A stretch of DNA of 64,000 nt, taken from positions 275-64,274 of the forward strand of contig CALLOB010000020.1 in the NCBI GenBank assembly GCA_938005315.1. Direction: 5' to 3'. The translations under genes were made by a program, and so were the position numbers. The notes below the pieces were generated by a model. The model was given only the letters and a program-made list of their open reading frames with translations, made no database searches and had not been told where the DNA came from. Source of the stretch: an uncultured Phycisphaerae bacterium (GTDB taxonomy: Bacteria > Planctomycetota > Phycisphaerae > UBA1845 > PWPN01). Positions 4,273-18,934 of this stretch are shown here, one piece after another (within the stretch, counting starts at the first letter, position 1; every line of letters starts with the position of its first letter).

Positions 4273-7200
4273 ATGCGGACGCACATTTCCGGTTCTGCGG
4301 CGGCTGTGATGGCCTTGGGGTCGTGTTGCGGGCTGGCGGCCTCGGCCAGGGCGGTGGATTCCGCCGGGGTCAAGGCGTTGTTCGCCGACCCGCCGCGCGA
4401 GTACAGCACCGCCCCGCTTTGGGTCTGGAACGACTGGCACACCCCCGAGCAGGTGGTCGAATCGCTGCGTGACCTGGCCGGCAGGAACGTGCGGCAGGTG
4501 TTCATCCACCCCCGCCCCGGGCTGATCACGCCTTATCTCGGTCCGGAGTGGTTCCAGTTGTGGGAGGCCTGTCTGGAGGAGGCCCGGCGGCTGGATATGA
4601 ACCTGTGGATCTACGACGAGAACTCCTACCCCTCGGGATTCGCCGGGGGACGGGTGCCCGAGGCGATGCCCGAGTCGCGGGGGCTGGGGCTGGTGATCCG
4701 CGAGACCGACAAGGCACCGGTCGCCGACGAAAACCTGGTGGGTGCGTATCGCATGACCGACGGGGGCTTTCAGGACGTCACCGCCGACTGCCGGGCCGGC
4801 CGGGCGCTGCCCGAGGGGCGCTATGTGACGGCGGTCGTCGTCCAGGCCCCGGTGACCGCCTGGCACGGCGGCCGCTATTACGTGGATCTGATGCGGCCGG
4901 GGGTCACCGAGAAGTTCATCGAGCTGACGCTGGAACCCTACCGCCAGCACTTCGGGCACGAGTTCGGCAAACGGATTCCGGGGGTATTCCAGGACGAGGC
5001 TCACATCCGCCCGGCCGACGCGGGGGTGCCCTGGACGCCGGGTTTGCCGGAGGCCTTCCGCAAGCGATGGGGTTACGACCTTCTGGCCCACCTTCCGAGC
5101 CTGAACTACCCGCTGGGCGACTTCCGGCGGGTGCGGCACAATTTCCTGCAGGTCTGCCTGGAGCTGTTCATCGAGCACTGGGCCCGGCCGTACTTCCAGT
5201 ACTGCAGCAGGCACAACCTGGAGTTCACCGGTCACTACTGGGAGCACGACTGGCCCTACTGCCTGCGGGTGCCGGACAACATGGCGATGTATGCCTGGCA
5301 CCAGCGGCCGGCGATCGACATCCTGCTGAACATCTGGAGCGACGGTCTGCAGGCCCAGACCGGAAACGTGCGGGCGGTGCGCGAGCTGGGCAGCGTGGCC
5401 AACCAGCTCGGTCTGAAGCGCACGCTCTGCGAGGCCTACGGCGCCGCCGGCTGGGAACTGCGTTTCGAGGACATGAAGCGGATCGGCGACTGGCTTTACG
5501 TGCTGGGGGTGAACACGCTGGACGAGCATCTCTCGCACGTCAGCATCCGCGGGGCCCGCAAGCACGACCACCCGCAGTCGTTCTCGTACCACGCCCCGTG
5601 GTGGGAGGCCTACGGCGTCTCGGCCTCCTATTTCGCCCGCCTTTCGGCGGCCATGTCCCAGGGGCGGCAGATCAACGACGTGCTGCTGATCGAGCCGACG
5701 ACCACGGTCTGGATGTACAACAGCGATGTTCAGGCCCCGCCGGACTGCGACCAGATCGCCCAGGCGTTCGAGGATATCGTCCGGGCCTGGGAGCAGGCCC
5801 AGATCGAATACGACATCGGCAGCGAGGACATCATCGCCCGCCACGGTTCGGTCAGCGACGGGGCTTTCGTGGTCGGACAGCGCGCCTACCGGGTGGTGGT
5901 GCTGCCGCCGCGCACGGAGAATCTCAACACCCGGACGGTCGAGTTGCTGGAGCGCTACCTGGCCGCCGGCGGGACGGTGCTGTGCTGCGGCGAGCCGCCG
6001 GAACGCATGGACGGGGCGGTCTCGGATCGTCCGGGGGCACTGAGCCGGGCGGACGGCTGGCGCCGGGTGACGCCCGAGCAGGCCCGGGCCGAGCTGGAGA
6101 AGCGGCAGACGGCCGGCGGATTCTTCATCACCCGGCCGGATGGCGACGAGGGACGGCTGTTCCATCATCGCCGGGTGATCGACGACGGCGAGATCCTGCT
6201 GGTGGTCAACAGCAGCATCGAGAAGCCCGCGCGCTGCACGGTCGCGGCTCGCGCCGGCGGCGCGGAGGAGTGGGACCTGCGCAGCGGGAAGGCGGCACCG
6301 CTGCCCTTCCAGCGCCGCGACGGGTCGGTGAGTCTGGATCTCGAGCTGCCTCCCTGCGGCAGCCGGCTGCTTTTCCTGTCGAAACAGCCGATCGAGCCGG
6401 CGCCGCCGGTGCGCGAGACGGTCCGGGCGCTGGCGGCCATCGGCGGCATGACGGTCGAGCGACTGGATCCCAACGTGCTCACGCTGGACTACGTGGACGT
6501 CGCCTGCCAGGGCGAAAGCAGGACCGGCCTGCACATCATCAAAGCCCGCGACTGGCTGTTCGCCCGCCACGGCTTCGAGCGTAACCCCTGGGACCGCGGC
6601 GTGCAGTTCCACGACACGCACCTGCGGCGGACGTTCGCGCCGGACAGCGGTTTCGAGGCGTCCTATCGCTTCACCATCGCCGGCGAGGTGCCGCGTGCCC
6701 TTTCGGCGGTGGTGGAGCGGGCCGACCTGTTTACCATCAGCTGCAACGGCGCGCCGGTGGCGCTCCAGCCGGGCTCCTGGTGGCTGGACCGCCAGTTCGG
6801 CCGGCTGGACATCGCCGCGGCCGCCCGGACGGGCGAGAACGTCCTGACCCTCCGGGCCCGGCCGTTCAGCGTGTTCCACGAGATCGCGGAGGTGTACATC
6901 CTGGGCGACTTCGCATTGCGGCCGGCCGAACGCGGCTTCGTGATCGAGCCGGCCAGGCCGCTGGAGGCCGGCGACTGGAGGCCGCAAGGCATGCCGATGT
7001 ACGGGCACCGCGTCGCGTACGCCCGCCGGTTCAAGATTGACCGGCCTGCGGAGAAGTATCGGGTGGTCCTGGGGCGGTGGTACGGCAGCATCGCGAAGGT
7101 GAGCGTCAACGGGCAGGACGCCGGGTGGATCTCCTGTGCCCCGTGGACCTGCGAGGTCGGTCCGCTGGTCCGGGCCGGGGAGAACACGGTTCAGGTCGTG

Positions 7201-7380
7201 GTCTATGGAACGCCGCGCAACATCCTGGGGCCGTTCCACAACCCGTCGATCGGCCTGACCGGGCCGTGGCACTTCGACGCGTCGCCGGAGTCCGGCCCGC
7301 CGCCGGGGGACAAATATTTCGGAATCGGTTATGGTCTGTTCGAGGCTTTCGAGCTTCAGGAGATCACCGCCTCGCGGTGA
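4273..7380 (+). CDS. Secreted glycoside hydrolase (family not assigned by eye) with C-terminal galactose-binding-like domain
   Basis: Signal peptide MRTHISGSAAAVMALGSCCGLAASARA. FADPPREYSTAPLWVWNDWHTPEQV...LWIYDENSYPSGFAGG is the N-terminal signature of a large planctomycete/bacteroidete glycosidase group. The C-terminus resembles a GH2-type sugar-binding jelly roll. Confidence 0.7.
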   Translation: MRTHISGSAAAVMALGSCCGLAASARAVDSAGVKALFADPPREYSTAPLWVWNDWHTPEQVVESLRDLAGRNVRQVFIHPRPGLITPYLGPEWFQLWEACLEEARRLDMNLWIYDENSYPSGFAGGRVPEAMPESRGLGLVIRETDKAPVADENLVGAYRMTDGGFQDVTADCRAGRALPEGRYVTAVVVQAPVTAWHGGRYYVDLMRPGVTEKFIELTLEPYRQHFGHEFGKRIPGVFQDEAHIRPADAGVPWTPGLPEAFRKRWGYDLLAHLPSLNYPLGDFRRVRHNFLQVCLELFIEHWARPYFQYCSRHNLEFTGHYWEHDWPYCLRVPDNMAMYAWHQRPAIDILLNIWSDGLQAQTGNVRAVRELGSVANQLGLKRTLCEAYGAAGWELRFEDMKRIGDWLYVLGVNTLDEHLSHVSIRGARKHDHPQSFSYHAPWWEAYGVSASYFARLSAAMSQGRQINDVLLIEPTTTVWMYNSDVQAPPDCDQIAQAFEDIVRAWEQAQIEYDIGSEDIIARHGSVSDGAFVVGQRAYRVVVLPPRTENLNTRTVELLERYLAAGGTVLCCGEPPERMDGAVSDRPGALSRADGWRRVTPEQARAELEKRQTAGGFFITRPDGDEGRLFHHRRVIDDGEILLVVNSSIEKPARCTVAARAGGAEEWDLRSGKAAPLPFQRRDGSVSLDLELPPCGSRLLFLSKQPIEPAPPVRETVRALAAIGGMTVERLDPNVLTLDYVDVACQGESRTGLHIIKARDWLFARHGFERNPWDRGVQFHDTHLRRTFAPDSGFEASYRFTIAGEVPRALSAVVERADLFTISCNGAPVALQPGSWWLDRQFGRLDIAAAARTGENVLTLRARPFSVFHEIAEVYILGDFALRPAERGFVIEPARPLEAGDWRPQGMPMYGHRVAYARRFKIDRPAEKYRVVLGRWYGSIAKVSVNGQDAGWISCAPWTCEVGPLVRAGENTVQVVVYGTPRNILGPFHNPSIGLTGPWHFDASPESGPPPGDKYFGIGYGLFEAFELQEITASR

Positions 7381-7434: not shown

Positions 7435-8601
7435 ATGGCCCGCGAAACCATGACCTCGCGCGAGCGGCTGCTCAAGGCCGTTCGCCGCGAAGTGCCGGAT
7501 CGGGTGCCGATCGATCTGGGCGGCTTTCAGACCGGGATCCACCGGTCGGCCTATGCGGCGCTGCTGGAGCACCTGGGGTGGCAGGAGGAGATCCGCATCC
7601 TGGACCCGGTGCAGCAGCTGGCCCGACCTTCGGAGGAGGTGCTGCAGCGGTTCCGGGTGGATACGCGCTATGTGTGCGCCCACGGCCCCGACAGCTTCAA
7701 AGGCGGGATCGTGCGGAACGAACGCGACGGGCGGGCGTGGCTGGATCTGAAGGATGAGTTCGGGATCGTCTGGTCCATGCCCGAGGATCGGCCCCTGTAT
7801 ATGGACATTTCGCGCCATCCTCTGGCCCACGCGACCATCGACGACATCCGGGCCTGCCCCTTTCCGCGCGGCGACGACCCCACGCGGTTCACCGGCGTGC
7901 GCGAGCAGGCCCTGGAACTGCGCCGCCGGACGCCCTATGCGATCTGCACCGGCATCGGCGGCGTGGTGTATGAGTTCTGCTGGTATCTGCGCGGGCTGGA
8001 GCAGTGGTTCGTGGACCTGATGGAGAACCGCCCGCTGTGCGAGGTGCTGCTGGACAGAATGGCCGACTACTGGGTGAGCTTCTACACCGCCTTCCTGAAG
8101 GAGGTCGGCGACCTGGTCGATGTGGTGATGATCGGGGACGACCTGGCCGGGCAGTCCGGGCCGCTGTTCTCGCCGGCCATCTACCGCGAGCTGGTCAAGC
8201 CCCGCCAGAAGCGTCTGGTCCAGCACATCCGGTCGCTGACCAACGCGGCGATCTGGTATCACACCTGCGGGGCCTGCAGGACCTACATCCCTGAGCTGAT
8301 CGACAACGGCGTGGACATCCTCAACCCCGTGCAGATCGGCGTGAAGGGCATGGCCCCGGCCGAACTGAAACGCGAGTTCGGCTCGCGGATCGCCTTCTGG
8401 GGCGGGGGCATCGATTCGCAGCATGTTCTGCCATTCGCGACCCCGGCCGAAGTGCGCGAACACGTCCGCGCGAATCTGGCGGCCTTCAAGCCCGGCGGCG
8501 GCTACGTCTTCAACAACGTGCACAACATCCAGGACGGCGTGCCCCCGGAAAACATCGTCGCCCTTTTCGACGCCGCCTGGGAGTTCGGTGCCTACGACTG
8601 A
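7435..8601 (+). CDS. Uroporphyrinogen decarboxylase (URO-D)/MtaA-like family protein
   Basis: MTSRERLLKAVRREVPDRVPIDLGG... and the C-terminal GGGYVFNNVHNIQDGVPPENIVALFDA are typical of URO-D family TIM barrels. Starts 54 nt after the upstream hydrolase gene. Confidence 0.75.
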   Translation: MARETMTSRERLLKAVRREVPDRVPIDLGGFQTGIHRSAYAALLEHLGWQEEIRILDPVQQLARPSEEVLQRFRVDTRYVCAHGPDSFKGGIVRNERDGRAWLDLKDEFGIVWSMPEDRPLYMDISRHPLAHATIDDIRACPFPRGDDPTRFTGVREQALELRRRTPYAICTGIGGVVYEFCWYLRGLEQWFVDLMENRPLCEVLLDRMADYWVSFYTAFLKEVGDLVDVVMIGDDLAGQSGPLFSPAIYRELVKPRQKRLVQHIRSLTNAAIWYHTCGACRTYIPELIDNGVDILNPVQIGVKGMAPAELKREFGSRIAFWGGGIDSQHVLPFATPAEVREHVRANLAAFKPGGGYVFNNVHNIQDGVPPENIVALFDAAWEFGAYD

Positions 8602-8628
8602 CCCGGGCACCCCGGGGAGGCCTCTTCG

Positions 8629-8837
8629 CCTGGAGGGCCCCGCTCCGTCGGGGCCGTGCGCAACGGCCCGCGATCGCGGACGCGACGAAGCAAGACCGGA
8701 CGCGACGGAGCGCGTCCCTCCAGGTCCGCAAGACCGGACGCGACGGAGCGCGTCCCTCCAGGTCCGCAAGACCGGACGCGACGAAGCGCGTCCCTCCGGG
8801 CCCGCATTCCCCTGGAGGGCCCCGCTCCGTCGGGGCC
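8629..8837. repeat. REP-like array of three 38-bp tandem palindromic units, bracketed by a 27-bp direct repeat
   Basis: Units 8690-8727 and 8728-8765 are identical (GCAAGACCGGACGCGACGGAGCGCGTCCCTCCAGGTCC). Unit 8766-8803 is a variant. Each contains the hairpin GGACGCG-ACGGAG-CGCGTCC. CCTGGAGGGCCCCGCTCCGTCGGGGCC occurs at 8629-8655 and 8811-8837 and is itself a hairpin (GGCCCC...GGGGCC). Confidence 0.85.
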
Positions 8838-9754
8838 ATAAACCACCAGGCCCGGGCCTTCACGCAACCTTTGCGTGGATGGCGGTGTCCCGCGATGCCG
8901 GCCTTGTGGTCCTGCTGACCCGCAAAGACCGGCCTGCATTGGTGTTTGCACAACGAGCCCTCAGGACACGAAAAAAATCCCTCGCGAAAGGCTTGCCCAG
9001 GGTTCTGGTTTGGTGTATGTTAGGATGTGTGCGCGGGCCCTTGGAGGGGTCGAAGCGTTGGGATAAAGGGAAAAAAGACAGGGAGGTCCGCGGGGGGATG
9101 GGAAATCGACTTGTCTGCCTTAAAGTATTTCAAAGCAAAAGCTTACATCGGCCCGAAGGGGACGGGGAGACGGTTGCGGCCAGGGGTTCGTCGCTGCAGG
9201 AGCCCGCGATGGGGTACCAGAGGCAGCCCGCGGCTCGGAATGCAGCGCGTTCGGCCGGCCGATCGCCCGGGACAGCAGAGCGGCCGGGCGGGGCCGGCGG
9301 TTCTCGCGACGCCGGGCGGCACAACCCCGCGGTTGGCGCGCCCGCGGTTGGCGCGGAGCCCCCCGCCGGTGTGAGAATCCGGCCCCGCGCTCTCGACCGG
9401 ACGTCGGACGCATCCTGCCACGGCTTGCCGGCCAGAACCTCGAACGGCCTGAGAATCCGGCCGCGCGCGCCCGATCGGATCAGCTGTCCCGGAAACGACG
9501 ACATCTCGGCCGAGTGTTCAAGACCCCTTGGCGGCTGGCTGGCCTCGGCCTGTGGCGAAGAAGCTGACACGGTCGCGCGTTCAAGGTCACCGCACGACGA
9601 AGTCCTGGCCACCTCTATCGCAGACGCTGAAATCGCCGGCTCATGGTCGGCGCGCGGTGAAGTTGCAGAGACCCGTCGCGTGCAGGGCGGGGGTGCCGCG
9701 TTCTCGGGCTCGCCGCCAGGCCAATCGACAGTTCTCCAGCCCGGCCGGAGCGCA

Positions 9755-11050
9755 GTGGCCGAAGATGGTCGGCACCGGCCTGAGCCGCTGGATGCCCAGC
9801 GACGGCGGCTGTTCGAGGAACACCAGCAACTCGTGGAACTTCACCTGCGGCGGCGTCTGAGGCCGGGCGGCGCGCGGCGTTGCGGGCGGGAGCACGACGA
9901 TCTGCGGCAGGTGGGCCTGCTGGCGCTGTTGACGGCGGTGCGGACCTGGAATCCGCGGCGGTGTCCGGCGTTTGCGCCTTACGCCCTGTTGCGCATCAAG
10001 TCGGCGGTCAACCGGGTTCTGCTGGAGGAGGCCTGTCTGATTCGCGTTCCATCGCGGGCCCGGCGTCAGGCCCGCGCGGCGGCCGGTGGTGGCGCAACGC
10101 ATGGGCCGGGGACGCGTGCGTTTCCGGTGCCGCACGTGGGGACGCTGAGAGGGCTGGAGGATCGGCTGGCCGACGCGTCGGTTCATGTCGACCGGCCTCA
10201 CAGCGACGGGGAGGATGAGGCAGGAATCGTGATCGCGGTCGCCGGGGCGGACGACGTGCCGGGCGTGTTTTGCGGCGGGGCAGGAGGCGAGGCGCGGCCA
10301 GGTGGGTCAGTCATGGGATGGACGGGAGAAGTCCCGGGCGCGTTGAGCTTCTCCGGGCCGGTTGGGGCCGCCGCGCACCTGCGTTCGCGCGGCCCGGCCG
10401 GAGCGGATGGTCCGATTCACTGCGGGCTCGGCCCGGAGGCGGACCCGAGCGTGCGGAGCCTGCTGCACCGGCGGTACGTGCGGGCGGTGGCCCGGGCGGT
10501 GGACCTTTTGGGCGATCGTCCGTGGCGGGCGCGGAATCCCGCGGCCGTCCTGCGGCGGTTGGCAGTCGAGCGGCTGCTGATCGGACGGGAGGGCCACCGA
10601 ACGCCGCTGCGCCGGATCGCGGCCGAATCCGGGCTGGCGCCGAGTCAAACGCTGCGTTATGCACGGGCTCTTGAGGAGGAGGTCCGGCGGCAGTTCAGGG
10701 ATGACGTGCAGGTACCCTTGCTGCTGGCGCTGGCACGCCGGGGAAAGGAGGGTTTCGATGCCCGGGTGGATGCCGGGCAGCGGCAGTCGCTGCAGGAGGC
10801 CGAGTGGGCCGCTTTGCGGGCGCGTTTCGCGGCCATGGATCGGCCGGCGCAGGTCGAAGCGCTTTGTCGGCTGATCCGGCTGGCCGGCGGCGATGTGGCG
10901 GCGGTGGCGGCCGAGTTGCAGCAGGCAATGGAGGCGATCTGGAGGGACGGTCGGACGCTGTCGGGCGCGGTGATCCCGGGTCGTGTTTCGCCCGATATTT
11001 CGCCGATCCAGGCCGGCGGTTCGATCAGCCCGCCGGTCACGGCGGCCTGA
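9755..11050 (+). CDS. Atypical sigma-70 family factor-like protein (start uncertain)
   Basis: Distal part of ORF 8423..11050. DDLRQVGLLALLTAVRTWNPRRCPAFAPYALLRIKSAVNRVL resembles sigma region 2.1-2.3. TPLRRIAAESGLAPSQTLRYARALEEEV resembles a region-4 HTH. Codon usage is G/T-ending biased compared with neighbouring genes. GTG at 9755 is the first plausible in-frame start. Upstream of it the frame looks non-coding. Confidence 0.5.
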   Translation: MAEDGRHRPEPLDAQRRRLFEEHQQLVELHLRRRLRPGGARRCGREHDDLRQVGLLALLTAVRTWNPRRCPAFAPYALLRIKSAVNRVLLEEACLIRVPSRARRQARAAAGGGATHGPGTRAFPVPHVGTLRGLEDRLADASVHVDRPHSDGEDEAGIVIAVAGADDVPGVFCGGAGGEARPGGSVMGWTGEVPGALSFSGPVGAAAHLRSRGPAGADGPIHCGLGPEADPSVRSLLHRRYVRAVARAVDLLGDRPWRARNPAAVLRRLAVERLLIGREGHRTPLRRIAAESGLAPSQTLRYARALEEEVRRQFRDDVQVPLLLALARRGKEGFDARVDAGQRQSLQEAEWAALRARFAAMDRPAQVEALCRLIRLAGGDVAAVAAELQQAMEAIWRDGRTLSGAVIPGRVSPDISPIQAGGSISPPVTAA

Positions 11051-11478
11051 TCGCCGAGGTGAAGCATCGGCCAGCGTTCTTCACTCGGTCGTGCGCCCGC
11101 TTGGTCCGGCGGCCGCGCCGATGCGAACGCGATGAGGTTCAGACCGGACCGTGCCCGGTGGGTCCGGCTCCGGCGGTCCCGGCGCCGGAGATCTGGCCGC
11201 ACGCATCCTGTGGCAGGGTCTGCGCCCGCCCCTGGCGGTCCCGGCGCCGGAACCTCCGGTGGCCGATCCTTCCGGACGCGGGGCAGGGGACGCGGGGTAC
11301 CGCGCAACCACCGGCCACCCGCGGCGGGCCGCCCGGGTGCTGGGCCGGGCGCAACGTAGTCAGCGATGGTCGACGCCGAGCGCCGCCGGGGCCGACCGAG
11401 AGCGGGGGCGGGCTTTTTTAGACGGGCGCGCCGGTCGGCGGTGCACGGGCGGCATGGGCAATCCGCAGACGGTCGGGT

Positions 11479-12024
11479 CTACATCTCGATGCCGATGCGG
11501 GCGGGGATGCCCTGGCGGAAGTAGTGTTTGACCTCGCACATGTCCGTCACCAGATCGGCGCGGGCGACGATGCGGGGATCGGCTCCGCGTCCGGTCAGGA
11601 CGAGTTCGAGATGCTCGGGCCTGGCCTCGATCAGGTCCAGCAGCCAGTCGACGTCGATCAGCCCCATGGCCGTGCCGATGTTGGCCTCATCGAGCACGAC
11701 CACGTCGTATTCGCCGCCGTGCACCGCGGCATGCACCTCGCCCAGGCCCGCGGCCGCCAGGGCGGAGTCCTGGCGGGTCGGCGCGCCGGCGATGAAGCGG
11801 GGCAGGCCGAACTGCCTGATGGTGACGCGGTCCGCCAGGCGAGCCAGGGCGTGCAGTTCGCTGCTGCAGCTGCCCTTGGCGAACTGGGCGACGAACACGC
11901 GCAGGCCGGCGCCGGCGGCCCGCAGCACCAGCCCCAGGGCCGCGGTGGTCTTGCCCTTGCCGTTGCCGGTGTAGACGTGCACGTATCCGCGTCGCACGCA
12001 CCTGCCCTGATCTGAGGTCTCCAT
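11479..12024 (-). CDS. cobO: Cob(I)yrinic acid a,c-diamide / cob(I)alamin adenosyltransferase
   Basis: Internal ATG at 12024 with GGAG 6 nt upstream. GYVHVYTGNGKGKTTAALGLVLRAAGAGLRVFVAQFAKG (P-loop) and DVVVLDE are CobO/BtuR hallmarks. Confidence 0.9.
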   Translation of the reverse strand: METSDQGRCVRRGYVHVYTGNGKGKTTAALGLVLRAAGAGLRVFVAQFAKGSCSSELHALARLADRVTIRQFGLPRFIAGAPTRQDSALAAAGLGEVHAAVHGGEYDVVVLDEANIGTAMGLIDVDWLLDLIEARPEHLELVLTGRGADPRIVARADLVTDMCEVKHYFRQGIPARIGIEM

Positions 12025-12049
12025 GTTTCGCTCCGGCCGGGACCGGCTC

Positions 12050-12862
12050 TCATTCGAGGTCGTACAGGCTGTTGTCCGGCGACAGAAAGCCGGTAGGCAC
12101 CGATCCGTGGGGCTTGATGTTGCCCTTGTCGAACTCATAGGTCTCGTCGAACCGCCGACTCCACGGTTCGCCGTGGCCGTCGGCAAAGGTCACATTGGTA
12201 CGCAGGAGATGGCGATAGCCCTGGGTGCCGGCCGATCGGCCCGAGAAGGACGCGTCGCGGCCGCGGAACGGCGAGCGCATGAACTTGTTGGCGCCGGCGA
12301 CGTATTCCCCGTCTCCGAAGAGGGCACAGCCGGCGGGCCGGCGGACGTCATCCGGTCGGGCGGGGTCGGCATCGGCGATGAGTCGGCCGGTCGGTCTGGG
12401 CGGCCAGCCGGTCAACTCGGCGCGATACAGGCAATAGCCCACGTAGCTGCTGTTGTAGTTGTATCCCGTGAAAGGGTAGTCGACCCAGTTGTCGCCGCCT
12501 TCGTACTTGGGGCACTGATTGATCTGGGCGATGGTCTTGCCCTGCCAGAGCAGACCGGGCTGAACGGTGGAGACACGTCTGCCGCCCTCCCAGCGGTGGC
12601 GGACCAGAAGATCCCAGGCGCAGGACACCATGCCGTCGGGGGAGCCGTACAGGTAGGGAGGGAATCGTCGCTGGGCGGCGGCATAGCCATGGGCCGCGAT
12701 GGCCATCTGTCGGAGGTTGCTCAGGCACTGGGCGCCGCGGGAGAGCTCCCGGGCCCGTACGAGCGAAGGCACGAGGATCGCCAGGAGCAGAGCCAGAACC
12801 GCCGCCACCACCAGCACTTCCAGCAGCGTCCAACCCTTCCTGCAGGGGCCTGCCGGGGCCAT
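12050..12862 (-). CDS. DUF1559 / H-X9-DG prepilin-type N-terminal cleavage-methylation domain protein
   Basis: Start at 12862 with GGAG upstream. KGWTLLEVLVVAAVLALLLAILVPSL is a type IV pilin-like leader plus helix. The C-terminal HLLRTNVTFADGH fits the H-X9-DG motif. Confidence 0.85.
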   Translation of the reverse strand: MAPAGPCRKGWTLLEVLVVAAVLALLLAILVPSLVRARELSRGAQCLSNLRQMAIAAHGYAAAQRRFPPYLYGSPDGMVSCAWDLLVRHRWEGGRRVSTVQPGLLWQGKTIAQINQCPKYEGGDNWVDYPFTGYNYNSSYVGYCLYRAELTGWPPRPTGRLIADADPARPDDVRRPAGCALFGDGEYVAGANKFMRSPFRGRDASFSGRSAGTQGYRHLLRTNVTFADGHGEPWSRRFDETYEFDKGNIKPHGSVPTGFLSPDNSLYDLE

Positions 12863-12878
12863 GGGCGTGCTCCAGGAG

Positions 12879-13961
12879 TCAGCGCTTGCAATCGGGATCG
12901 ACCGGCACATCGGGGCCGCCGAAACACCTCTGAAGGATGGCGAAATCGGACTGATCCACGTCGCCGTCCTGATCCAGGTCCGTGCGCAGGCACTCCGGCG
13001 CCGGCGGGCCCATGGCCGGGCCGGTGGCACAGTTTTCAAAAACCGCGATGTCGTCGACGTCCACGTCCGTATCGCAGTCGAAGTCGGGCGCCGGGGCGTC
13101 CGGGTCGACATCGGCCACGGCATCGATTTCCGGCGTCATGCCGCTGCCCGCGGGGTTGCTGATGCGGATGAAGCGGAACCAGGGCAGGTTCACGTCGTCC
13201 AGATCGAATCCCGTGCCGCCGGCGCAATAACCGTACTTCGCGGCGTATTCGGCCACGGTCCGTCCGACGAAGCTTGCGGGCGAGAGGGCGGGATTGAACG
13301 GGATCAACGGGTGCGTCGGCGCTCCCCACCAGCCGTTGTGGGGCGGCTGCGACGGGGCGTTGGCGGGATCGTAAATCCGGCCCAGCGTGGGGGCGAACAT
13401 GTCGGCGCCCTGCGGGGGCGCAAAGGTCCGCCAATCGGTCAGCTCCGGATGGGCCGGATCGTGGTATTGGGCGACGGAGACGATGCCGGGCTCCGACCAG
13501 ACCGTGGCGGTCTGGATGACGGCGGCGTTCGGATCGCCGTTGGTCCACATGACGCCGCCGCCGGTCGTCTGAAAAGCGTTGCCGTAGACGATGAAGTCGA
13601 TTCCGCAGGGGTTGCGGGGATCGTTGACCACCGGATGGTCGAAGGCCAGGATCAGGTGGCCGCCTTCGCCGATCGAGACCAGCTCGAACATCCGGAAGGC
13701 CGGATAGACGGGCAGGACCGCGACCGGCTCGCCGACCGGGATGCTCCAGTTGTCTCCGGTGGTGTCGATGGTGGGACGCCCCAGTGCCGCCAGCGGCTGA
13801 TTGAACGGCGCCTGCAGGATCCAGTCCGTGGGTACCGGGCCTCCCTGAACGTACTCGACGACTTCCGTGGCGAAATCGGACGGGTTCTCGCTGAATTCGT
13901 AACCGGGACTGACCGTCGTCACGATCATGACGATGGCCGCGGGGCCAAGGGATCTGCTCAT
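12879..13961 (-). CDS. Secreted protein of unknown function with C-terminal double dockerin/EF-hand-like Cys-containing module
   Basis: Start at 13961 with GGAGCAGGA upstream. Hydrophobic N-terminus MSRSLGPAAIVMIVTTV. C-terminus DFDCDTDVDVDDIAVFENCATGP...DLDQDGDVDQSDFAILQRCFGGP. Confidence 0.7.
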   Translation of the reverse strand: MSRSLGPAAIVMIVTTVSPGYEFSENPSDFATEVVEYVQGGPVPTDWILQAPFNQPLAALGRPTIDTTGDNWSIPVGEPVAVLPVYPAFRMFELVSIGEGGHLILAFDHPVVNDPRNPCGIDFIVYGNAFQTTGGGVMWTNGDPNAAVIQTATVWSEPGIVSVAQYHDPAHPELTDWRTFAPPQGADMFAPTLGRIYDPANAPSQPPHNGWWGAPTHPLIPFNPALSPASFVGRTVAEYAAKYGYCAGGTGFDLDDVNLPWFRFIRISNPAGSGMTPEIDAVADVDPDAPAPDFDCDTDVDVDDIAVFENCATGPAMGPPAPECLRTDLDQDGDVDQSDFAILQRCFGGPDVPVDPDCKR

Positions 13962-14079
13962 GGTTTCCTGCTCCGATAAAGCCTCTTGCCTGTCAGCGAC
14001 ACGAGCAGCGCCGGGGCGGAGGTCCGTGCCCGGAAAGCCCGGACACGGACCCGGCCGTCCACGGTGCTTTTTCTTTCTT

Positions 14080-14721
14080 TCAGCTGCGGCGACGGCGCAG
14101 CCCCGGCAGGCCGGCGGCCAGCAGCAGGACCGCCGTCGGCTCGGGAATCGCAAAGGGCACATTGAGCGGATAATCGTCGATGCTCGTGCCCGGCGGATAC
14201 GACCCGAACCACAGAATGGCGTTGATCCCCTCGAGGTGCCCGTTCTGGAGCAGCTTCTGGTTATAACCTGCCTGGTTGGCGTCCCAGTCGCCCAGTTTCG
14301 TCCAGTTGGAGTTCATGGGGCCCCACCGGGCATAGGGATTATCCGTGCTGCCCAGATTCCAGCTGCCTGGTTCGATGTGCAGGTGGCTGTCGTTGCCGTC
14401 GAAATAGGCGATGTTGACGAGGAAGGCCCCGCCGTAGGCGGACGTCACGGTGAACACGCCGGCGTTGTGGAAGGCATCGAGCATATCCGACTCGTATGCG
14501 GTGCCGTCCCAGCGGTAGCCGAAGGCATGCGATTCGGTGTGATACGGGCCGCCCATGAAGTTCCAGTCCACCACCAGGATGGTTTCGTTGGCCCCGCTGC
14601 CGGCCCAGGCATCCACTTCGATCCAGGCGTTCTGGCCCGAAGCGCTCTGGAAATAGTACGGTGCCGCGGTGACGGGAGCTGCAGCACACAACACAACCAA
14701 CACCCAAAGCTTTCTTTCCAT
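14080..14721 (-). CDS. PEP-CTERM sorting-domain secreted protein
   Basis: GAGGAG RBS upstream. Signal peptide MERKLWVLVVLCAAAPVTAA. The C-terminal IPEPTAVLLLAAGLPGLRRRRS has the full PEP motif, TM helix and Arg cluster. Confidence 0.8.
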   Translation of the reverse strand: MERKLWVLVVLCAAAPVTAAPYYFQSASGQNAWIEVDAWAGSGANETILVVDWNFMGGPYHTESHAFGYRWDGTAYESDMLDAFHNAGVFTVTSAYGGAFLVNIAYFDGNDSHLHIEPGSWNLGSTDNPYARWGPMNSNWTKLGDWDANQAGYNQKLLQNGHLEGINAILWFGSYPPGTSIDDYPLNVPFAIPEPTAVLLLAAGLPGLRRRRS

Positions 14722-14805
14722 TGCCTTCTCCTCATCCAGGATCGCCGACAGGACCGGCCGACCACCGGCCCGCCCTGCGCGGTCAAGCCATCGCTTTTCC
14801 TGGCT

Positions 14806-14898
14806 TCACGTGTTGCCCGGAGATGTCTTCTTCGGAACGATCAGGCACACCGCCAAGGCGACCGCCGGACCTGCGATGAGCCGGATGTAACGAACCAT
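14806..14898 (-). CDS. Possible 30-aa small membrane peptide in the riboswitch-operon leader
   Basis: My translation: MVRYIRLIAGPAVALAVCLIVPKKTSPGNT. GGGGAGAAGG lies about 10 nt upstream. It is too short for the ORF track and there is no homology evidence. Confidence 0.2.
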   Translation of the reverse strand: MVRYIRLIAGPAVALAVCLIVPKKTSPGNT

Positions 14899-14940
14899 CT
14901 GAAAGCCGCCTTCTCCCCGAGACGCGCGGGGAATCCCCCC

Positions 14941-14962
14941 GGGCTTCGTCGAAGCCCTTTTT
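14941..14962 (+). terminator. Intrinsic-terminator-like hairpin on the plus strand (GGGCTTC-GTC-GAAGCCC followed by TTTTT)
   Basis: Perfect 7-bp GC-rich stem and T5 tract read directly from the sequence. There is no credible plus-strand CDS upstream. On the minus strand the hairpin is followed by a G-run, not a U-run. Confidence 0.35.
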
Positions 14963-15149
14963 CAGTCCTCACGTTCGAGGTTCGCCGAGACTGTCAATGG
15001 CCGCCCAGGCGGTCGCGGCCACGGCCCGGTGTCCCGATCGCGGGGACACGACGCGGTCCGGCGCATCGTGGTCAAGGCAAGGTGGGCCAGCCGATAACAC
15101 TGAAAAAGGGGGCACAACCTTGCGGTCCCTGAATGCGCGAGGACCATCA

Positions 15150-15370
15150 GGTTTCGACAGGCAGGTCTTCCGGCTCAGGGCTAGTGTCCCGCTCGCCTTC
15201 CCACCAGTGCCCGTTGCGGGCCCGGCAGTGGCTCATCGTCAGCAGGACGCCGGCGGGCATGGCTCGGCATCGAGCTTCCTGCCCGCCGCCCTTCACGGCG
15301 GCGCGTCCGCGGTGGGATTCCCCGCTCCTCCAGTGAACGGGGGCACCACACTTCCCTTTTCACCCGGCGT
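15150..15370 (-). promoter_or_regulatory. Cobalamin (B12) riboswitch
   Basis: The minus strand shows the conserved blocks in canonical order. AAAAGGGAAGTGTGGTG (15344-15360), GGGGAATCCCACC, GCCACTG (15226-15232), GGGAAGGC (15195-15202) and the B12 box AGCCGGAAGACCTGCC (15160-15175). Confidence 0.8.
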
Positions 15371-15414
15371 GTCGGCGACCACCGCCGACGAGGCCGGGCA
15401 CCTGTCCGGGCGGC

Positions 15415-15443
15415 AATATATCCTGCCGTTGGTCGCGTGTCAA
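15415..15443 (-). promoter_or_regulatory. Sigma-70-type promoter for the riboswitch leader
   Basis: Minus strand: TTGACA (15438-15443), exact 17-nt spacer, TATATT (15415-15420). It lies about 45 nt upstream of the riboswitch 5' block. Confidence 0.5.
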
Positions 15444-15583: not shown

Positions 15584-18500
15584 TCACGGCGAGGCCGACT
15601 GCAGCAGTGTCACCGGGCCGAGCAGGCCGGAGTCCATCAGCGGAGAATCGGCGGTCAGTTTGCGGATGTTGGTGCGCGTGAACCGCTGTGCGGGCTCCAG
15701 GGCGGCGTCGCCGATCACGCGGTTGGCCCAGCAGTTGACGACCTCGATCCGCAGGCGATTCCCGGTACGTTGGACGGCGTCGGTGATCTCCACGCGCAGG
15801 GGCCAAGCCCACAGCACGCCGAGGTCGTGACCGTTGAGGGTGACGGCCGCGAGCTGCCGGACGTTGCCCAGGTCGAGGTACAGGCGGGACCCGGGCGCGG
15901 CGGCGCCGTCGGGCAGATCGAAGGTCTTCTCGTAGAAGGCCGTGCCGGAGTAGAAGCGGATGCCGGGCTCGAGCCTGCAGGTCCAGTTGACCAGCGAAGG
16001 GAACTCGACGGACTCGGGCCCGCCCCACGCGGGATCGAATCGCACCGTCCAGGGACCGGTGGGCTCGGCGACCTTCGAGAGCCGGGGGAAGTTGCCGTTC
16101 GCGGCCGCGGGCGGCGGCGATGCGGCGGGTTCACGAAACAGGATGAACCACGAGCCGCAGGGGGCGAACTCCAGCGGCACGCGTGTCCGTCCGCCCTGGC
16201 AGGACCAGGCCGTCAGCCTGCGACGGTCGCCGGTGACGGCATCCCAGAGTTCCGGGGCTTTACCGCTGACGCGGAAGAGGACGTCGGCGGCCAGGGGCTG
16301 CTCGGTGAGGTTGACGACGAAATAGATCTCGACCTCACCGTCGCGGCGGTGGATGTAGTCCAGTACCGTCGTGCCAGGATCGGCGGGCCGGGTGGCGGCG
16401 CCGGCGGCGGTGACGACGTACTCGAGATCCGGGAGCACGCCGTCGTCCAGCAGCACCTGCCGGGCCGGCCGGCCGCTGATCACCCGTCCCCGGCCGACGG
16501 AGGCCTCCGGGCGGCCGTCGGGCCACAGCTCGTCGGCCAGTCGGGCGACGCGGGCGTCGCAGGCCGGGTAGTCCTGCAGGCCGGTGGCCGTGCGGGGCCT
16601 GGGGCCGACGACCGTCGCCCCGGCGTGGACCAGTTCCCTGATCTTCTCGAGCACCGGAAGCGAGATCGCCTCGCGCGGCGGCAGCACCAGCAGTGCGTAG
16701 CTCATGCCGTCCGGCAGCACGATCCGGCGGTCGCGCACGCTCATGCGGGTGAGCACGACCTCTTCGGTGGCCACGTCGTAGTCGAAGCCGGGCAGCACGC
16801 CGGCCGGATCGGAGGCCTTGAGCCGGGCGAAGTTGGGCACGTGATCGCCGTAGTAGAAGACCGCGTCGGCCACGAAGAGGCCCTGCTGGAGGAGGAAGTG
16901 GCAGCGGTTCAGATAGCTCATGAACGGGCCGGAGCGGTTCCACCAGGTCGTTCCGGGGTCGATGTGGGTGCCGGCGAAGTACTGCTGGCCCGGCAGGCCC
17001 ATCTCGACCGGCGAGCAGGTGAAGGCGTGCCAGACGAGCAGATTGAGGCCCTCGCAGCAGGCCCGGTCGAACGAGGGCTTGAGGTTGTCGCCGAGCGTTT
17101 CCTGCCAGTGGGGGCCGATGTTGGTGAAGCCTTCGGCCAGGACGAGCCGGCGGCCGCAGGTGTGGGCGGCCGAGGCCGGCTGCTTGACGAAGAAGCGATC
17201 CTCGTCGGTGACCCGATGTCGCCACGAGCGCGACCAGAACTCCGACATCGGGGCGTCGTTGAGGCCGAGGCAGCGCAGCGAATCGACGGGCACGGCATGC
17301 GGCCCGCCGGATTCCGGGTGGATGCGCAGGCCGCGGCGGTGGGCGTACTCGCGGAACAGCCGGAAATGGTTGTCGACGGCCAGGTCGCCCATGGTTTTGC
17401 GGAAATCGTAGAGGAAGCGGTTGGTGATCTGGCGGCTGTCGACGATGCGGCCGGCGATCGCGGGCAGGAACGGCAGCAGGTCGTATCCCCGGCGCCGGCG
17501 GAATTCCTCGCGCAGGGTGGGCGTCCAGTTGGCGGCCTCGATCTCCCAGCTGTCGGTGTGCAGGTAGACGAGCGTCTCGCCGGCCAGGGGGCCGGCGTCG
17601 GCGATGAGCGGCTCGACGACCTGTTTCCAGTAGCTGCGGAACGTTTCGGCGTCGAAGGGGTCGATCGCGTAGCCGTCCCAGCCTTCGCTGTTGGTGTTCA
17701 CCCGGCAGTGGCGGTTCAGCGTGCAGCCGAATCGCAGGATTTCCCAGTCGCCCTCGGGCACGTCCCACCGGAGCGTGCCGTCGCGCTCCATGCGGCCGGT
17801 GAGGTCGATCAGGCGGCCGGAGTGCAGGTGTTCCTCGCCGGGAACGCCCGGGGCCTCGTCGAACAGCGGCGAGGTGTCCGGCGCCGACCGCCCGAGGACC
17901 CGGTCGAGGGTCTTGTACTCGAAGTTCCGGATGCGGTGGGCGGCTTCGCGGCGCGGCCAGGAGCCGTCGGGCCCGTGCAGAGCGATCTCGACGATCTGGA
18001 CGTTGCGCGGCGCGCCCCCTTGCGCGTCGCAAGCCTCGAGGATCCGCAGGCGGAAGGTTCGGGCCCGGGTCTCGTCGAAGCGGACGGAGTTCTCGCCATT
18101 TTCCGGGCATGCGAAGGTGCTCAGAAGCCGCCACGCCCGGCCGTCGTCGGAGGCCTCCAGTTCGCACCGGCGCGGACCGTATCCCGGCCGGCCGGTGAGG
18201 GTCAGGCCGTGCACGGCCACGGGCCTGTCGAAGCGGAACTGGATCCACTCGGGGCGCTCGCGCGAGGGGCCGTCTCCGGGACTGGTGCCGCCGGACGCCC
18301 AGAAGGTCTCGGGCCTGCCGTCGACGGCGTCGGCGGCCACGTGCACGGGCTGCTGGGAGCCGGCGGTGACTTCCAGGGTCGCGTCGCCGTCGTGGTCCGG
18401 GCGGACCGGGTAGGCGACGACCGCGATGTCGCGGTAGAAGGCCGGCTCGTGCTGCGGCTCGGGCAGGATTGCACGCGCGGGGCCGGGCCCCCGGACGCGT

Positions 18501-18934
18501 GTGTCGGACCAGACCAGCCGCTTGGGGGCGTCCTGGGGTTTCACCATCGGACCGCCGAGGTTCCAGCCGCTCTGGATGTTGAGGCTCATTTCCAGGCCGA
18601 GCCGTTGAGCCTCGCGCAGGGCATGTTTGTAGAGCTCGCGCCACGGGGGCGTGAAGAAGGTGGGGCCGTGGGGCACCTGGTCGTTGCCGTCCTGCTCGGC
18701 CCCGCCGGCGTCGCAGATCAGGGCGCCGCCGAAGCCCTTGTCGGCCATTTCCTCGAGGTCGCGGGTGATGGCGGCGGTGGTGACATTGCCGTTGAGCCAC
18801 CACCAGTAGGCCCGCACACGGGCTTCGCGCGGCGGCGCGGCGAATCCCTTCGCGAGGGCGTCGTCGGCGAGGGTGATCGGACAGAGCGCCAGGGCCGGCA
18901 CGAGACCGATGCTCAATCTGCCCGTCGGCTGCAT
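15584..18934 (-). CDS. Secreted GH106-like glycoside hydrolase (putative alpha-L-rhamnosidase type) with F5/8 type C domain
   Basis: Signal peptide, then FAAPPREARVRAYWWWLNGNVTTAAITRDLEEMADKGFGGALICDAGG. An internal discoidin-like segment is present (AVDGRPETFWAS...WIQFRFDRPVAVHGLTL). The C-terminus is a GH2-type sugar-binding-like domain. Confidence 0.75.
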   Translation of the reverse strand: MQPTGRLSIGLVPALALCPITLADDALAKGFAAPPREARVRAYWWWLNGNVTTAAITRDLEEMADKGFGGALICDAGGAEQDGNDQVPHGPTFFTPPWRELYKHALREAQRLGLEMSLNIQSGWNLGGPMVKPQDAPKRLVWSDTRVRGPGPARAILPEPQHEPAFYRDIAVVAYPVRPDHDGDATLEVTAGSQQPVHVAADAVDGRPETFWASGGTSPGDGPSRERPEWIQFRFDRPVAVHGLTLTGRPGYGPRRCELEASDDGRAWRLLSTFACPENGENSVRFDETRARTFRLRILEACDAQGGAPRNVQIVEIALHGPDGSWPRREAAHRIRNFEYKTLDRVLGRSAPDTSPLFDEAPGVPGEEHLHSGRLIDLTGRMERDGTLRWDVPEGDWEILRFGCTLNRHCRVNTNSEGWDGYAIDPFDAETFRSYWKQVVEPLIADAGPLAGETLVYLHTDSWEIEAANWTPTLREEFRRRRGYDLLPFLPAIAGRIVDSRQITNRFLYDFRKTMGDLAVDNHFRLFREYAHRRGLRIHPESGGPHAVPVDSLRCLGLNDAPMSEFWSRSWRHRVTDEDRFFVKQPASAAHTCGRRLVLAEGFTNIGPHWQETLGDNLKPSFDRACCEGLNLLVWHAFTCSPVEMGLPGQQYFAGTHIDPGTTWWNRSGPFMSYLNRCHFLLQQGLFVADAVFYYGDHVPNFARLKASDPAGVLPGFDYDVATEEVVLTRMSVRDRRIVLPDGMSYALLVLPPREAISLPVLEKIRELVHAGATVVGPRPRTATGLQDYPACDARVARLADELWPDGRPEASVGRGRVISGRPARQVLLDDGVLPDLEYVVTAAGAATRPADPGTTVLDYIHRRDGEVEIYFVVNLTEQPLAADVLFRVSGKAPELWDAVTGDRRRLTAWSCQGGRTRVPLEFAPCGSWFILFREPAASPPPAAANGNFPRLSKVAEPTGPWTVRFDPAWGGPESVEFPSLVNWTCRLEPGIRFYSGTAFYEKTFDLPDGAAAPGSRLYLDLGNVRQLAAVTLNGHDLGVLWAWPLRVEITDAVQRTGNRLRIEVVNCWANRVIGDAALEPAQRFTRTNIRKLTADSPLMDSGLLGPVTLLQSASP

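Follow-up and report, generated by a model that had tools for sequence, protein, structure and literature searches.

We find that a 64-kb stretch of DNA from an uncultured Phycisphaerae bacterium (contig CALLOB010000020.1; the whole stretch is hereafter the window) carries, all on its minus strand, a promoter, a cobalamin riboswitch and a four-gene operon, g1-g2-g3-cobO. This operon probably captures corrinoids at the cell surface under repression by B12 and activates them inside the cell, a reading to which we give a probability of about 0.75. The products of g1 and g2 are putative corrinoid binders, g3 encodes a pilin-like protein of the DUF1559 family, and cobO encodes an ATP:cob(I)alamin adenosyltransferase (Table 1). 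An earlier note on this DNA, made from the letters alone, had as its central inference a surface corrinoid-capture module under control of a B12 riboswitch, and both remote homologies to B12-binding proteins and a riboswitch linkage that recurs across phyla now speak strongly for it.

The AlphaFold2 model of g2 (predicted local distance difference test score, pLDDT, 90.1; predicted template-modelling score, 0.88) was searched against the PDB with Foldseek, and the top match is 7biz, the complex of BtuH2 from Bacteroides thetaiotaomicron with cyanocobalamin (expectation value, E, 6.3e-7; probability 1.00), the next match lying at E 0.02. A profile built from g2 together with F2, a family of paralogues described below, likewise finds 7biz_A as its sole PDB match below an E of 0.1 (E 9.8e-5); an alignment profile of g2 only gives no BtuH match, and the link emerged after F2 and divergent paralogues had been added. 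Common to g2, F2 and 7biz is the motif LG.GGYI.V.FDH...YDF.V.GNAF. The corrin- and metal-site residues of BtuH2 are Gln-333, Asn-399, Phe-401, Glu-406, His-476, Tyr-510, Asp-522, Ser-582 and Glu-584, with Asn-399 a metal ligand and Phe-401 stacking on the corrin (PMC13616437). When these residue numbers are mapped to the 7biz chain with an offset of +100, Asn-399 and Phe-401 align with N128 and F130 of g2, N128 being invariant in 47 sequences; Gln-333 and Glu-406 are not conserved in g2. On this fold and profile evidence g2 is best described as a remote homologue of the Bacteroides BtuH B12-binding domain and a putative corrinoid binder. The earlier statement that the proteins of the operon are unrelated in sequence to BtuG and BtuH is thereby overturned for g2, and g1 appears to be transcobalamin-beta/DUF4430-like.

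Behind the BtuH-like domain, the C-terminal 60 residues of g2 match dockerins in the PDB (E 2e-3 to 0.07, and 8x39 at 2.6e-5 with the g2 profile). The window copy scores 18.3 bits against PF00404, under the threshold of 22.9, and some of its homologues pass, so that an earlier dockerin-like call is borne out in the family and falls short for the window copy itself; this dockerin-like calcium-binding module probably tethers g2. The F2 family is present in 15 loci and is clearly paralogous to g2 (hhalign probability 99.3%, E 1.5e-20); its members end in a PEP-CTERM tail instead of the dockerin-like module. Verrucomicrobiota contain proteins of 750-770 amino acids (aa) in which the g1 core and the BtuH-like domain are fused.

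The g1 family is 45-78% identical across phyla, with H65, H115 and several tryptophans invariant and with the family motifs ESHAFGYRWDG, GSWNLAST and EGINA. Among PDB folds, Foldseek places the AlphaFold2 model of g1 (pLDDT 79.7) closest to the cobalamin-binding beta-domains of transcobalamin, intrinsic factor and haptocorrin and to 3u7z, a bacterial protein with DUF4430, which forms the C-terminal domain in the transcobalamin family (PMC4350170). An exhaustive search with the g1 profile returns 804 representative clusters, many of them multi-domain proteins that repeat the g1 core, and four of ten tested relatives from this search carry PF14478, the transcobalamin-type beta-domain, at up to 57.8 bits, overlapping or abutting their g1-like stretches (P0257, P0271, P0284 and P0313; per-repeat E down to 1e-17). 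The C-terminal tail of g1, PEPTAVLLLAAGLPGLRRRRS, had been called PEP-CTERM and has a PEP motif, a hydrophobic helix and a basic cluster: the window copy scores 14.8 bits with the hidden Markov model, under the threshold of 20.7, and tails of this type are found in 29 of 31 family members (PF07589/TIGR02595; best E 2.4e-6), so that the family bears the call out. Homology between g1 and g2 was considered and rejected, hhalign matching only their signal peptides and tails; the two had clustered jointly at an earlier stage because of fusion proteins and PEP-CTERM tails.

We surveyed homologues of g1 at one genome per species and found 41 loci, in Planctomycetota (Phycisphaerae, Sedimentisphaerales, Anaerohalosphaeraceae, Pirellulales and Planctomycetales), Verrucomicrobiota, Armatimonadota, Desulfobacterota and Spirochaetota; the cassette carriers come from digesters, sediments and other anoxic habitats, and cultured species among them are Sedimentisphaera cyanobacteriorum (locus L21SP3_01692) and Desulfobacca acetoxidans (0.90-0.915 Mb). 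Among the 39 loci scanned with Rfam, RF00174 lies upstream of the g1 cluster on the same strand in 34, and one Spirochaetota locus has an adenosylcobalamin (AdoCbl)-II riboswitch there, giving 35 of 39; three of the four exceptions (L007, L023, L028) are contigs that end just upstream, and L012 is the sole true one. A genome holds some ten cobalamin riboswitches, and the chance of finding one on the same strand within 6 kb upstream is well under 1% per locus. As an independent check we took the loci of four distant g1-domain relatives, and RF00174 lies directly upstream in all four; one of these loci consists of a riboswitch, a TonB-dependent receptor, a DUF5074 protein (the BtuG-type propeller family) and a g1-repeat protein. 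The earlier note had looked to related loci for riboswitch linkage and for a following cobO: the linkage is found, in at least five phyla, and cobO follows in few loci.

The gene content of these loci varies by phylum. About 25 loci of Planctomycetota and Verrucomicrobiota share the cassette riboswitch-g1-g2-g3, the order in Armatimonadota is g3-g2-g1, and Desulfobacterota have g1 with several g2-type paralogues and without g3; the riboswitch stands immediately before g1 in 17 loci besides the window. Five of the Desulfobacterota loci also encode DUF4465 proteins, members of the BtuJ family, for which B12 binding has been shown experimentally (PMC13398666). The Spirochaetota locus L030 runs from an AdoCbl-II riboswitch through genes for an F2-like protein and a g1-domain protein to one for a TonB-dependent receptor, and relatives in Spirochaetota and of the Bacteroidota type place g1- or BtuH-like domains beside TonB-dependent receptors; the Planctomycetota loci hold no conserved transporter genes within the cassette.

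Several further arrangements were seen in these loci. Eleven Desulfobacterota loci (L010, L011, L013, L018, L019, L020, L025, L026, L033, L040 and L050) have tandem cobalamin and cyclic di-GMP (c-di-GMP)-I-type riboswitches, 100-300 nucleotides (nt) apart, before g1- or g2-type genes, with up to three pairs per locus (for example L050 1438-7944); this arrangement does not occur in the window. Two to three examples of AdoCbl/c-di-GMP pairing were given by Sherlock et al. 2022 (PMC9481103), and the Desulfobacterota loci add about ten pairings and tie the arrangement to one protein system. In L010 (1783-2878), L019 (1230-2449) and L025 (2170-3307) a cobalamin riboswitch directly precedes a gene for a transcription factor with a cyclic-nucleotide-binding domain and an AraC-type helix-turn-helix, which itself lies upstream of further riboswitches and g1/g2 genes, and a riboswitch-controlled regulator may thus be layered over riboswitch-controlled targets. 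The Phycisphaerae locus L027 encodes behind g2 a 556-aa PQQ_2/BamB-type beta-propeller with a dockerin-like end (7665-9335), which might play a part like that of the BtuG or BtuK propellers.

In the window, RF00174 matches over the full model (positions 1-189) at 44.8 bits, against a gathering threshold of 31.5 (E 5e-8), and is the sole Rfam match when the entire 64 kb is scanned at gathering thresholds; the B12 box AGCCGGAAGACCTGCC lies within the match, and the orthologous aptamers of L022, L003, L046 and L049 score 58-69 bits. The promoter matches 11 of 12 consensus positions, and no second promoter-like site exists between 11000 and 16000, where shuffling expects 0.5. Both the riboswitch and the near-consensus promoter had been called in the earlier note and are upheld; its placing of the aptamer some 45 nt downstream of the promoter is not, as the Rfam match abuts the -10 box, which puts the start of the aptamer no more than a few nucleotides from the presumed transcription start. 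The element is probably an OFF switch, with AdoCbl as the predicted repressing ligand.

The aptamer and g1 are separated by 420 nt, and in Planctomycetota loci aptamers often lie 200-560 nt ahead of the first gene. The earlier note gave a leader of about 430 nt; the interval is made up of a conserved structured RNA and the stump of an F2 gene. In an alignment of seven independent homologous loci the structured leader has a mean column identity of 76%, and the RNAalifold consensus comprises 70 pairs, including hairpins at 15078-15122, 15029-15049 and 14913-14933, the last of which adjoins the Shine-Dalgarno (SD) site and overlaps the 5' part of the SD region. Compensatory changes occur in nine pairs, against 4.0 +/- 1.6 in shuffled alignments, 2 of 500 of which reach nine; the covariation support for the hairpins is modest.

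How the aptamer controls expression is best explained by a translational and/or Rho-dependent platform, that is, translational control with polarity, which is our best guess because the seven-locus comparison reveals no conserved intrinsic terminator in the leader. A weak hairpin followed by CCCCCTTTTT had been put forward as the expression platform, and we reject it as an intrinsic terminator: the T-run (15103-15107) occurs in two of the seven leaders and sits in the loop of the conserved hairpin 15078-15122. A C-rich leader of the Rho-utilisation type is likewise unsupported (the leader transcript has 147 G and 129 C). Pairing of the 3' CCUGCCU of the aptamer with the SD, which RNAalifold proposes as helix 1, lacks covariation and would make the element an ON switch, and we do not rely on it. 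Two other observations concern this leader. On the plus strand, a perfect hairpin, GGGCTTCGTCGAAGCCC, followed by TTTTT (14941-14957) resembles a terminator for antisense transcription; its perfect stem is lacking in the homologous leaders, and on the sense transcript A5 precedes it and no U-run follows. In the metagenome contigs L047 and L048 an IS21-like transposase gene breaks the same leader about 75 nt past the B12 box, shortly behind the first post-aptamer hairpin.

Directly behind the conserved leader SD lies an open reading frame (ORF) of 30 codons, where the earlier note had seen no other credible coding sequence before g1. The same SD/ATG position opens intact F2 genes in L003, L022, L045, L046 and L049, and the N-terminus of the ORF resembles F2 signal peptides such as that of L046, MYRTKSLIAGLGLIV; a search of 14806-14721 for coding remains of F2 gives no similarity past the signal peptide. 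Judged by sequence, the ORF is what is left of the signal peptide of an F2 gene that has been lost, F2 being the BtuH-like paralogue of g2 with a PEP-CTERM tail, and the leader looks 420 nt long because only the first 30 codons of that gene remain. Since relatives start an intact F2 at the same site, F2 was ancestral in the operon and the ancestral order of this clade was riboswitch-F2-g1-g2-g3-(cobO), which is still seen in L046 and from which the window has lost F2.

The four genes are co-directional, with intergenic gaps of 118, 16 and 25 nt and GGAG-type SD sites that are seen in the sequence; public gene calls give identical products for g1-g3, and the coordinates, gaps and individual SD sites given in the earlier note are borne out. 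The spacer between g1 and g2 contains a highly stable 14-bp hairpin that may be a processing or stability element setting a higher g1:g2 expression ratio. The last gene had been named CobO/BtuR, an assignment that its PF02572 match secures (193.8 bits against a threshold of 25.7; E 3e-57; profile positions 2-171 of 172), together with the P-loop GNGKGKTT; NCBIfam equivalog scores are slightly under the strict cut-offs (154.2 against 167.75 and 178 against 185). Within the cassette, cobO is found only in the window, L008, L016, L032 and L046, and in L043 it stands directly behind the same leader. That cobO is the true target of the riboswitch and the other genes are passengers was considered and rejected, as cobO was counted in only 4 of 42 loci (the window and three genome loci) and g1/g2 in nearly all; given this rarity, the riboswitch targets the surface proteins, with cobO an occasional passenger.

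Table 1. Features of the cobalamin riboswitch operon, in the order of transcription; positions are those of the window
Feature	Start	End	Strand	Basis
Sigma-70-type promoter, TTGACA-17-TATATT	15415	15443	-	11/12 match; -35 hexamer invariant in homologous loci L003, L022
Cobalamin riboswitch aptamer (RF00174)	15143	15420	-	Rfam full-length match; B12 box 15160-15175
Conserved structured leader, about 245 nt, from aptamer to ancestral first start codon	14899	15142	-	Seven-locus alignment, RNAalifold
Stump ORF, 30 codons, MVRYIRLIAGPAVALAVCLIVPKKTSPGNT followed by a stop	14806	14898	-	Behind conserved leader SD; F2 signal-peptide remnant
g1, secreted 213-aa protein with PEP-CTERM-type tail, putative corrinoid binder	14080	14721	-	Fold and family evidence
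14-bp hairpin in g1-g2 spacer, without U-tract	14020	14053	-	RNAfold of 13955-14085: -59.5 kcal/mol
g2, secreted 360-aa protein, BtuH-like domain (about 25-285) and Cys-rich dockerin/EF-hand-like module (286-345)	12879	13961	-	Foldseek, profile
g3, 270-aa prepilin-type DUF1559/H-X9-DG protein, cassette-specific conserved subfamily	12050	12862	-	PF07963, PF07596
cobO/btuR, ATP:cob(I)alamin adenosyltransferase, 181 aa	11479	12024	-	PF02572, P-loop

On both flanks of the operon lie genes of the GH106 alpha-L-rhamnosidase family, at 15584-18934 (minus strand) and 4273-7377 (plus strand); the former ends 140 nt before the riboswitch promoter and also adjoins the operon in other public contigs. Next to the GH106-like gene on the other flank, 7435-8598 (plus strand) encodes a protein of the URO-D family (PF01208), a family that includes corrinoid-dependent methyltransferases of the MtaA/MtbA type, so that this gene could be a local B12 consumer. 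The coding content of the 2.9 kb or so downstream of cobO (8600-11480) is unclear: an 875-aa plus-strand ORF has as its only match sigma-70 region 2 (residues 463-529) and a poor codon-position GC contrast along much of its length, and the true gene is likely to be far shorter and to converge with cobO.

The third gene passes both PF07963 (22.0 bits, threshold 21.2) and PF07596 (35.2 bits, threshold 23.3; profile positions 2-46 only), and over its first 80 aa it matches type IV pilins and GspG. By inspection its H-X9-DG element reads RH-LLRTNVTFA-DGH, which agrees with the earlier description of a DUF1559/pseudopilin-like gene; the TIGR04294 model gives no match on g3 at E <= 0.1. The 26 aligned orthologues of g3 share 25-72% identity with the window protein; H218, D228, C46 and C117 do not vary among these sequences, and G229 is kept in at least 90%. 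Their genes nearly always adjoin g2: in Planctomycetota, Verrucomicrobiota and Armatimonadota, 27 loci besides the window have the two side by side, with g2-g3 gaps often of 0-10 nt, which suggests translational coupling. DUF1559 is a hugely expanded family. In the searchable literature we found nothing on DUF1559 function or a link between DUF1559 and B12, nor anything tying BtuH to Verrucomicrobia or a cobalamin riboswitch to a pilin in Planctomycetes.

These features are consistent with the following scheme. At high intracellular levels AdoCbl would bind the aptamer and expression of the downstream genes would fall; when B12 is scarce, g1, g2, g3 and CobO would all be made. The g1 protein, sorted by an exosortase and anchored through its PEP-CTERM tail, would bind corrinoids at the cell surface, and g2, tethered via its dockerin-like module, would do the same in the manner of BtuH and BtuJ in Bacteroides; corrinoid binding by either protein is inferred from remote homology. 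The pilin-like g3 probably anchors the binders or relays cargo across the periplasm, the least certain step of the scheme. An importer encoded elsewhere would then take the corrinoid up, and CobO would adenosylate it, the AdoCbl so formed shutting the riboswitch and closing the feedback loop. A bolder version, which we regard as unlikely, has g3, once cleaved by a prepilin peptidase, building or capping a short pseudopilus or fibre on which g1 and g2 dock, so that corrinoid would cross the envelope of Planctomycetes-Verrucomicrobia-Chlamydiae (PVC) bacteria and Armatimonadota without a TonB gate of the BtuG/BtuB type. If true, this would give a DUF1559 member its first assigned function and would amount to a vitamin-uptake mechanism of a new kind, which fits the proposal that Planctomycetes take up macromolecules by means of fibres.

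A number of results weigh against corrinoid capture as the function of this operon. Superposed globally, g2 and 7biz agree poorly (TM score 0.22, root-mean-square deviation 14.9 A); the profile alignment spans only residues 199-328 of the 7biz chain, the N-terminal half of the domain, and the C-terminal residues among His-476, Tyr-510, Asp-522, Ser-582 and Glu-584 of BtuH2 fall outside it. The signal sequence of g2 is of the Sec type without a lipobox cysteine, that is, no lipoprotein signal. The fold matches of g1 have probabilities of 0.9-1.0 but weak E (0.009-0.4), with TM scores of 0.56-0.62 against targets of about 100 residues; none of the 31 g1 family members matches PF14478 even at E <= 10, no direct sequence link of g1 to the PDB or Pfam was found, and the resemblance of the modelled g1 core to transcobalamin-beta/DUF4430 is indirect. 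No transporter is encoded near the window operon; the earlier note took the lack of btuB as pointing to a non-canonical route across the envelope, but its absence from the operon carries no information on genes elsewhere in the genome. In the window the first cistron has decayed and carries a mutated SD, and riboswitch control of g1-cobO may for this reason be looser than in related loci. PEP-CTERM tails, dockerin modules and pilin-like proteins, as well as the c-di-GMP riboswitches of the Desulfobacterota, are typical of adhesion and biofilm genes too.

This last point leads to another account of the operon, as a B12-regulated adhesion or biofilm module with which starved cells attach to B12 producers or to a matrix, its proteins binding no corrinoids. 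Its anchoring and sorting features are those of adhesins and matrix proteins, and the Desulfobacterota genes stand behind tandem AdoCbl and c-di-GMP-I riboswitches, a gate for low B12 and high c-di-GMP that is tied to sessile life (PMC9481103). We nevertheless hold it improbable: PDB matches after 7biz are about five orders of magnitude weaker, relatives of the g1 domain lie in loci of the btuB/btuG type, and DUF4465 B12 binders and CobO are co-encoded; moreover, adhesion and capture are not exclusive. Improbable to a similar degree is that the riboswitch controlled the lost F2 and that g1-cobO are now independent of B12, through read-through or an unrecognised internal promoter. The first cistron is indeed down to 30 codons, its SD has degenerated from the AGGAGG of the other leaders to AGGCGG, a strong SD serves g1 85 nt downstream, and purely translational control at the first cistron could let the downstream genes escape. 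Set against this, Rho-dependent polarity or mRNA decay usually spreads control to downstream cistrons, the promoter is the only such site found in the region, the aptamer and 245-nt leader are intact and conserved, and 17 other loci have the riboswitch immediately ahead of g1.

Least probable of all, we think, is that the proteins bind a different ligand tied to B12 status, whether cobalt, incomplete corrinoids only, or another tetrapyrrole such as haem. A speculation of this kind, on conductive pili that bear haem, was made by Sherlock et al. 2022 for the locus of Desulfobacca acetoxidans. Cobalamin riboswitches do also control cobalt transporters (PMC9481103), the invariant histidines of g1 could bind metal, and ligand specificity cannot be read from remote homology; yet both recognisable domains, BtuH and the transcobalamin beta-domain, point to binders of complete corrinoids, and the cassette is without cytochrome c motifs, cobalt-transporter families and haem-binding families. 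We keep to the capture and activation of corrinoids under B12 repression.

Few microbes make B12 and most need it, so that its scavenging shapes communities; to our knowledge, gut Bacteroides are the only bacteria in which elaborate surface capture of B12 has been worked out to date. The present reading gives a testable function to three unannotated protein families, with a first functional context for a DUF1559 subfamily, and it offers new small candidate scaffolds for B12 binding. It would also explain what the "unusual series of logic gates" in Desulfobacca acetoxidans regulates. The 7-kb array of AdoCbl, c-di-GMP-I and c-AMP-GMP riboswitches in that species (PMC9481103) is a locus of the same system, encoding g1 (P0069) and g1-like and g2-like proteins, whereas in the window one cobalamin riboswitch stands by itself, without a c-di-GMP aptamer. 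Sherlock et al. 2022 left the functions of the array genes open and speculated on conductive, haem-bearing pili (PMC9481103); we assign to them the identities of BtuH-like and DUF4430-like putative corrinoid binders.

Three other known systems can be set beside the operon. Like the btuB riboswitch and BtuR/CobA of Enterobacteria, it couples a cobalamin feedback sensor to the enzyme (CobA/CobO/BtuR) that makes the effector AdoCbl, but there the controlled gene is a TonB-dependent transporter and here surface binders and a pilin-like protein, behind a leader that is a conserved multi-hairpin RNA of 245 nt. Compared with the beta-domain of transcobalamin, intrinsic factor and haptocorrin (PF14478), the source of the best PDB matches of the g1 model, g1 is about twice the 100 aa of that domain, lacks an alpha-domain partner and has invariant motifs of its own. 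With GspG/PilA pseudopilins and type IV pilins g3 shares the prepilin cleavage/methylation motif and the hydrophobic alpha-1 helix; the globular part of g3 is of the DUF1559/H-X9-DG kind, for which sequence gives no relative of solved structure, genes for an assembly ATPase, a platform or a secretin are absent from its neighbourhood, and riboswitch linkage and adjacency to g2 are specific to its subfamily.

The closest comparison is with the corrinoid relay of Bacteroides thetaiotaomicron (BtuJ, BtuH, BtuK, BtuG and BtuB). Both, the present one by prediction, are operons repressed through a B12 riboswitch that encode several surface-exposed corrinoid-capture proteins; the fold and sequence motif of the BtuH B12-binding domain are common to g2 and F2, DUF4465 (BtuJ) proteins occur in some cassette loci, and both systems have multiplied paralogues and fused domains, g1 with g2 here and BtuG with BtuH there. 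They differ in that the Bacteroides proteins carry lipoprotein signals, where the cassette uses PEP-CTERM/exosortase tails and dockerin-like modules; that the BtuG propeller and BtuB are not encoded in the window operon; and that the relay has no counterpart of the DUF4430-like g1 or the pilin-like DUF1559 protein g3. The BtuH fold was described as without homologues and reported from 37 gut Bacteroidota only (PMC13616437), and other DUF families structurally like the Bacteroides accessory proteins are often found near DUF4465 genes (PMC13398666), a remark by which the cassette was in general terms partly anticipated. The relay belongs to gut Bacteroidota and the cassette to PVC bacteria, Armatimonadota and Desulfobacterota among its hosts, and the cassette looks like an undescribed relative, spread over at least five phyla, of the B12-scavenging machinery of gut Bacteroides.

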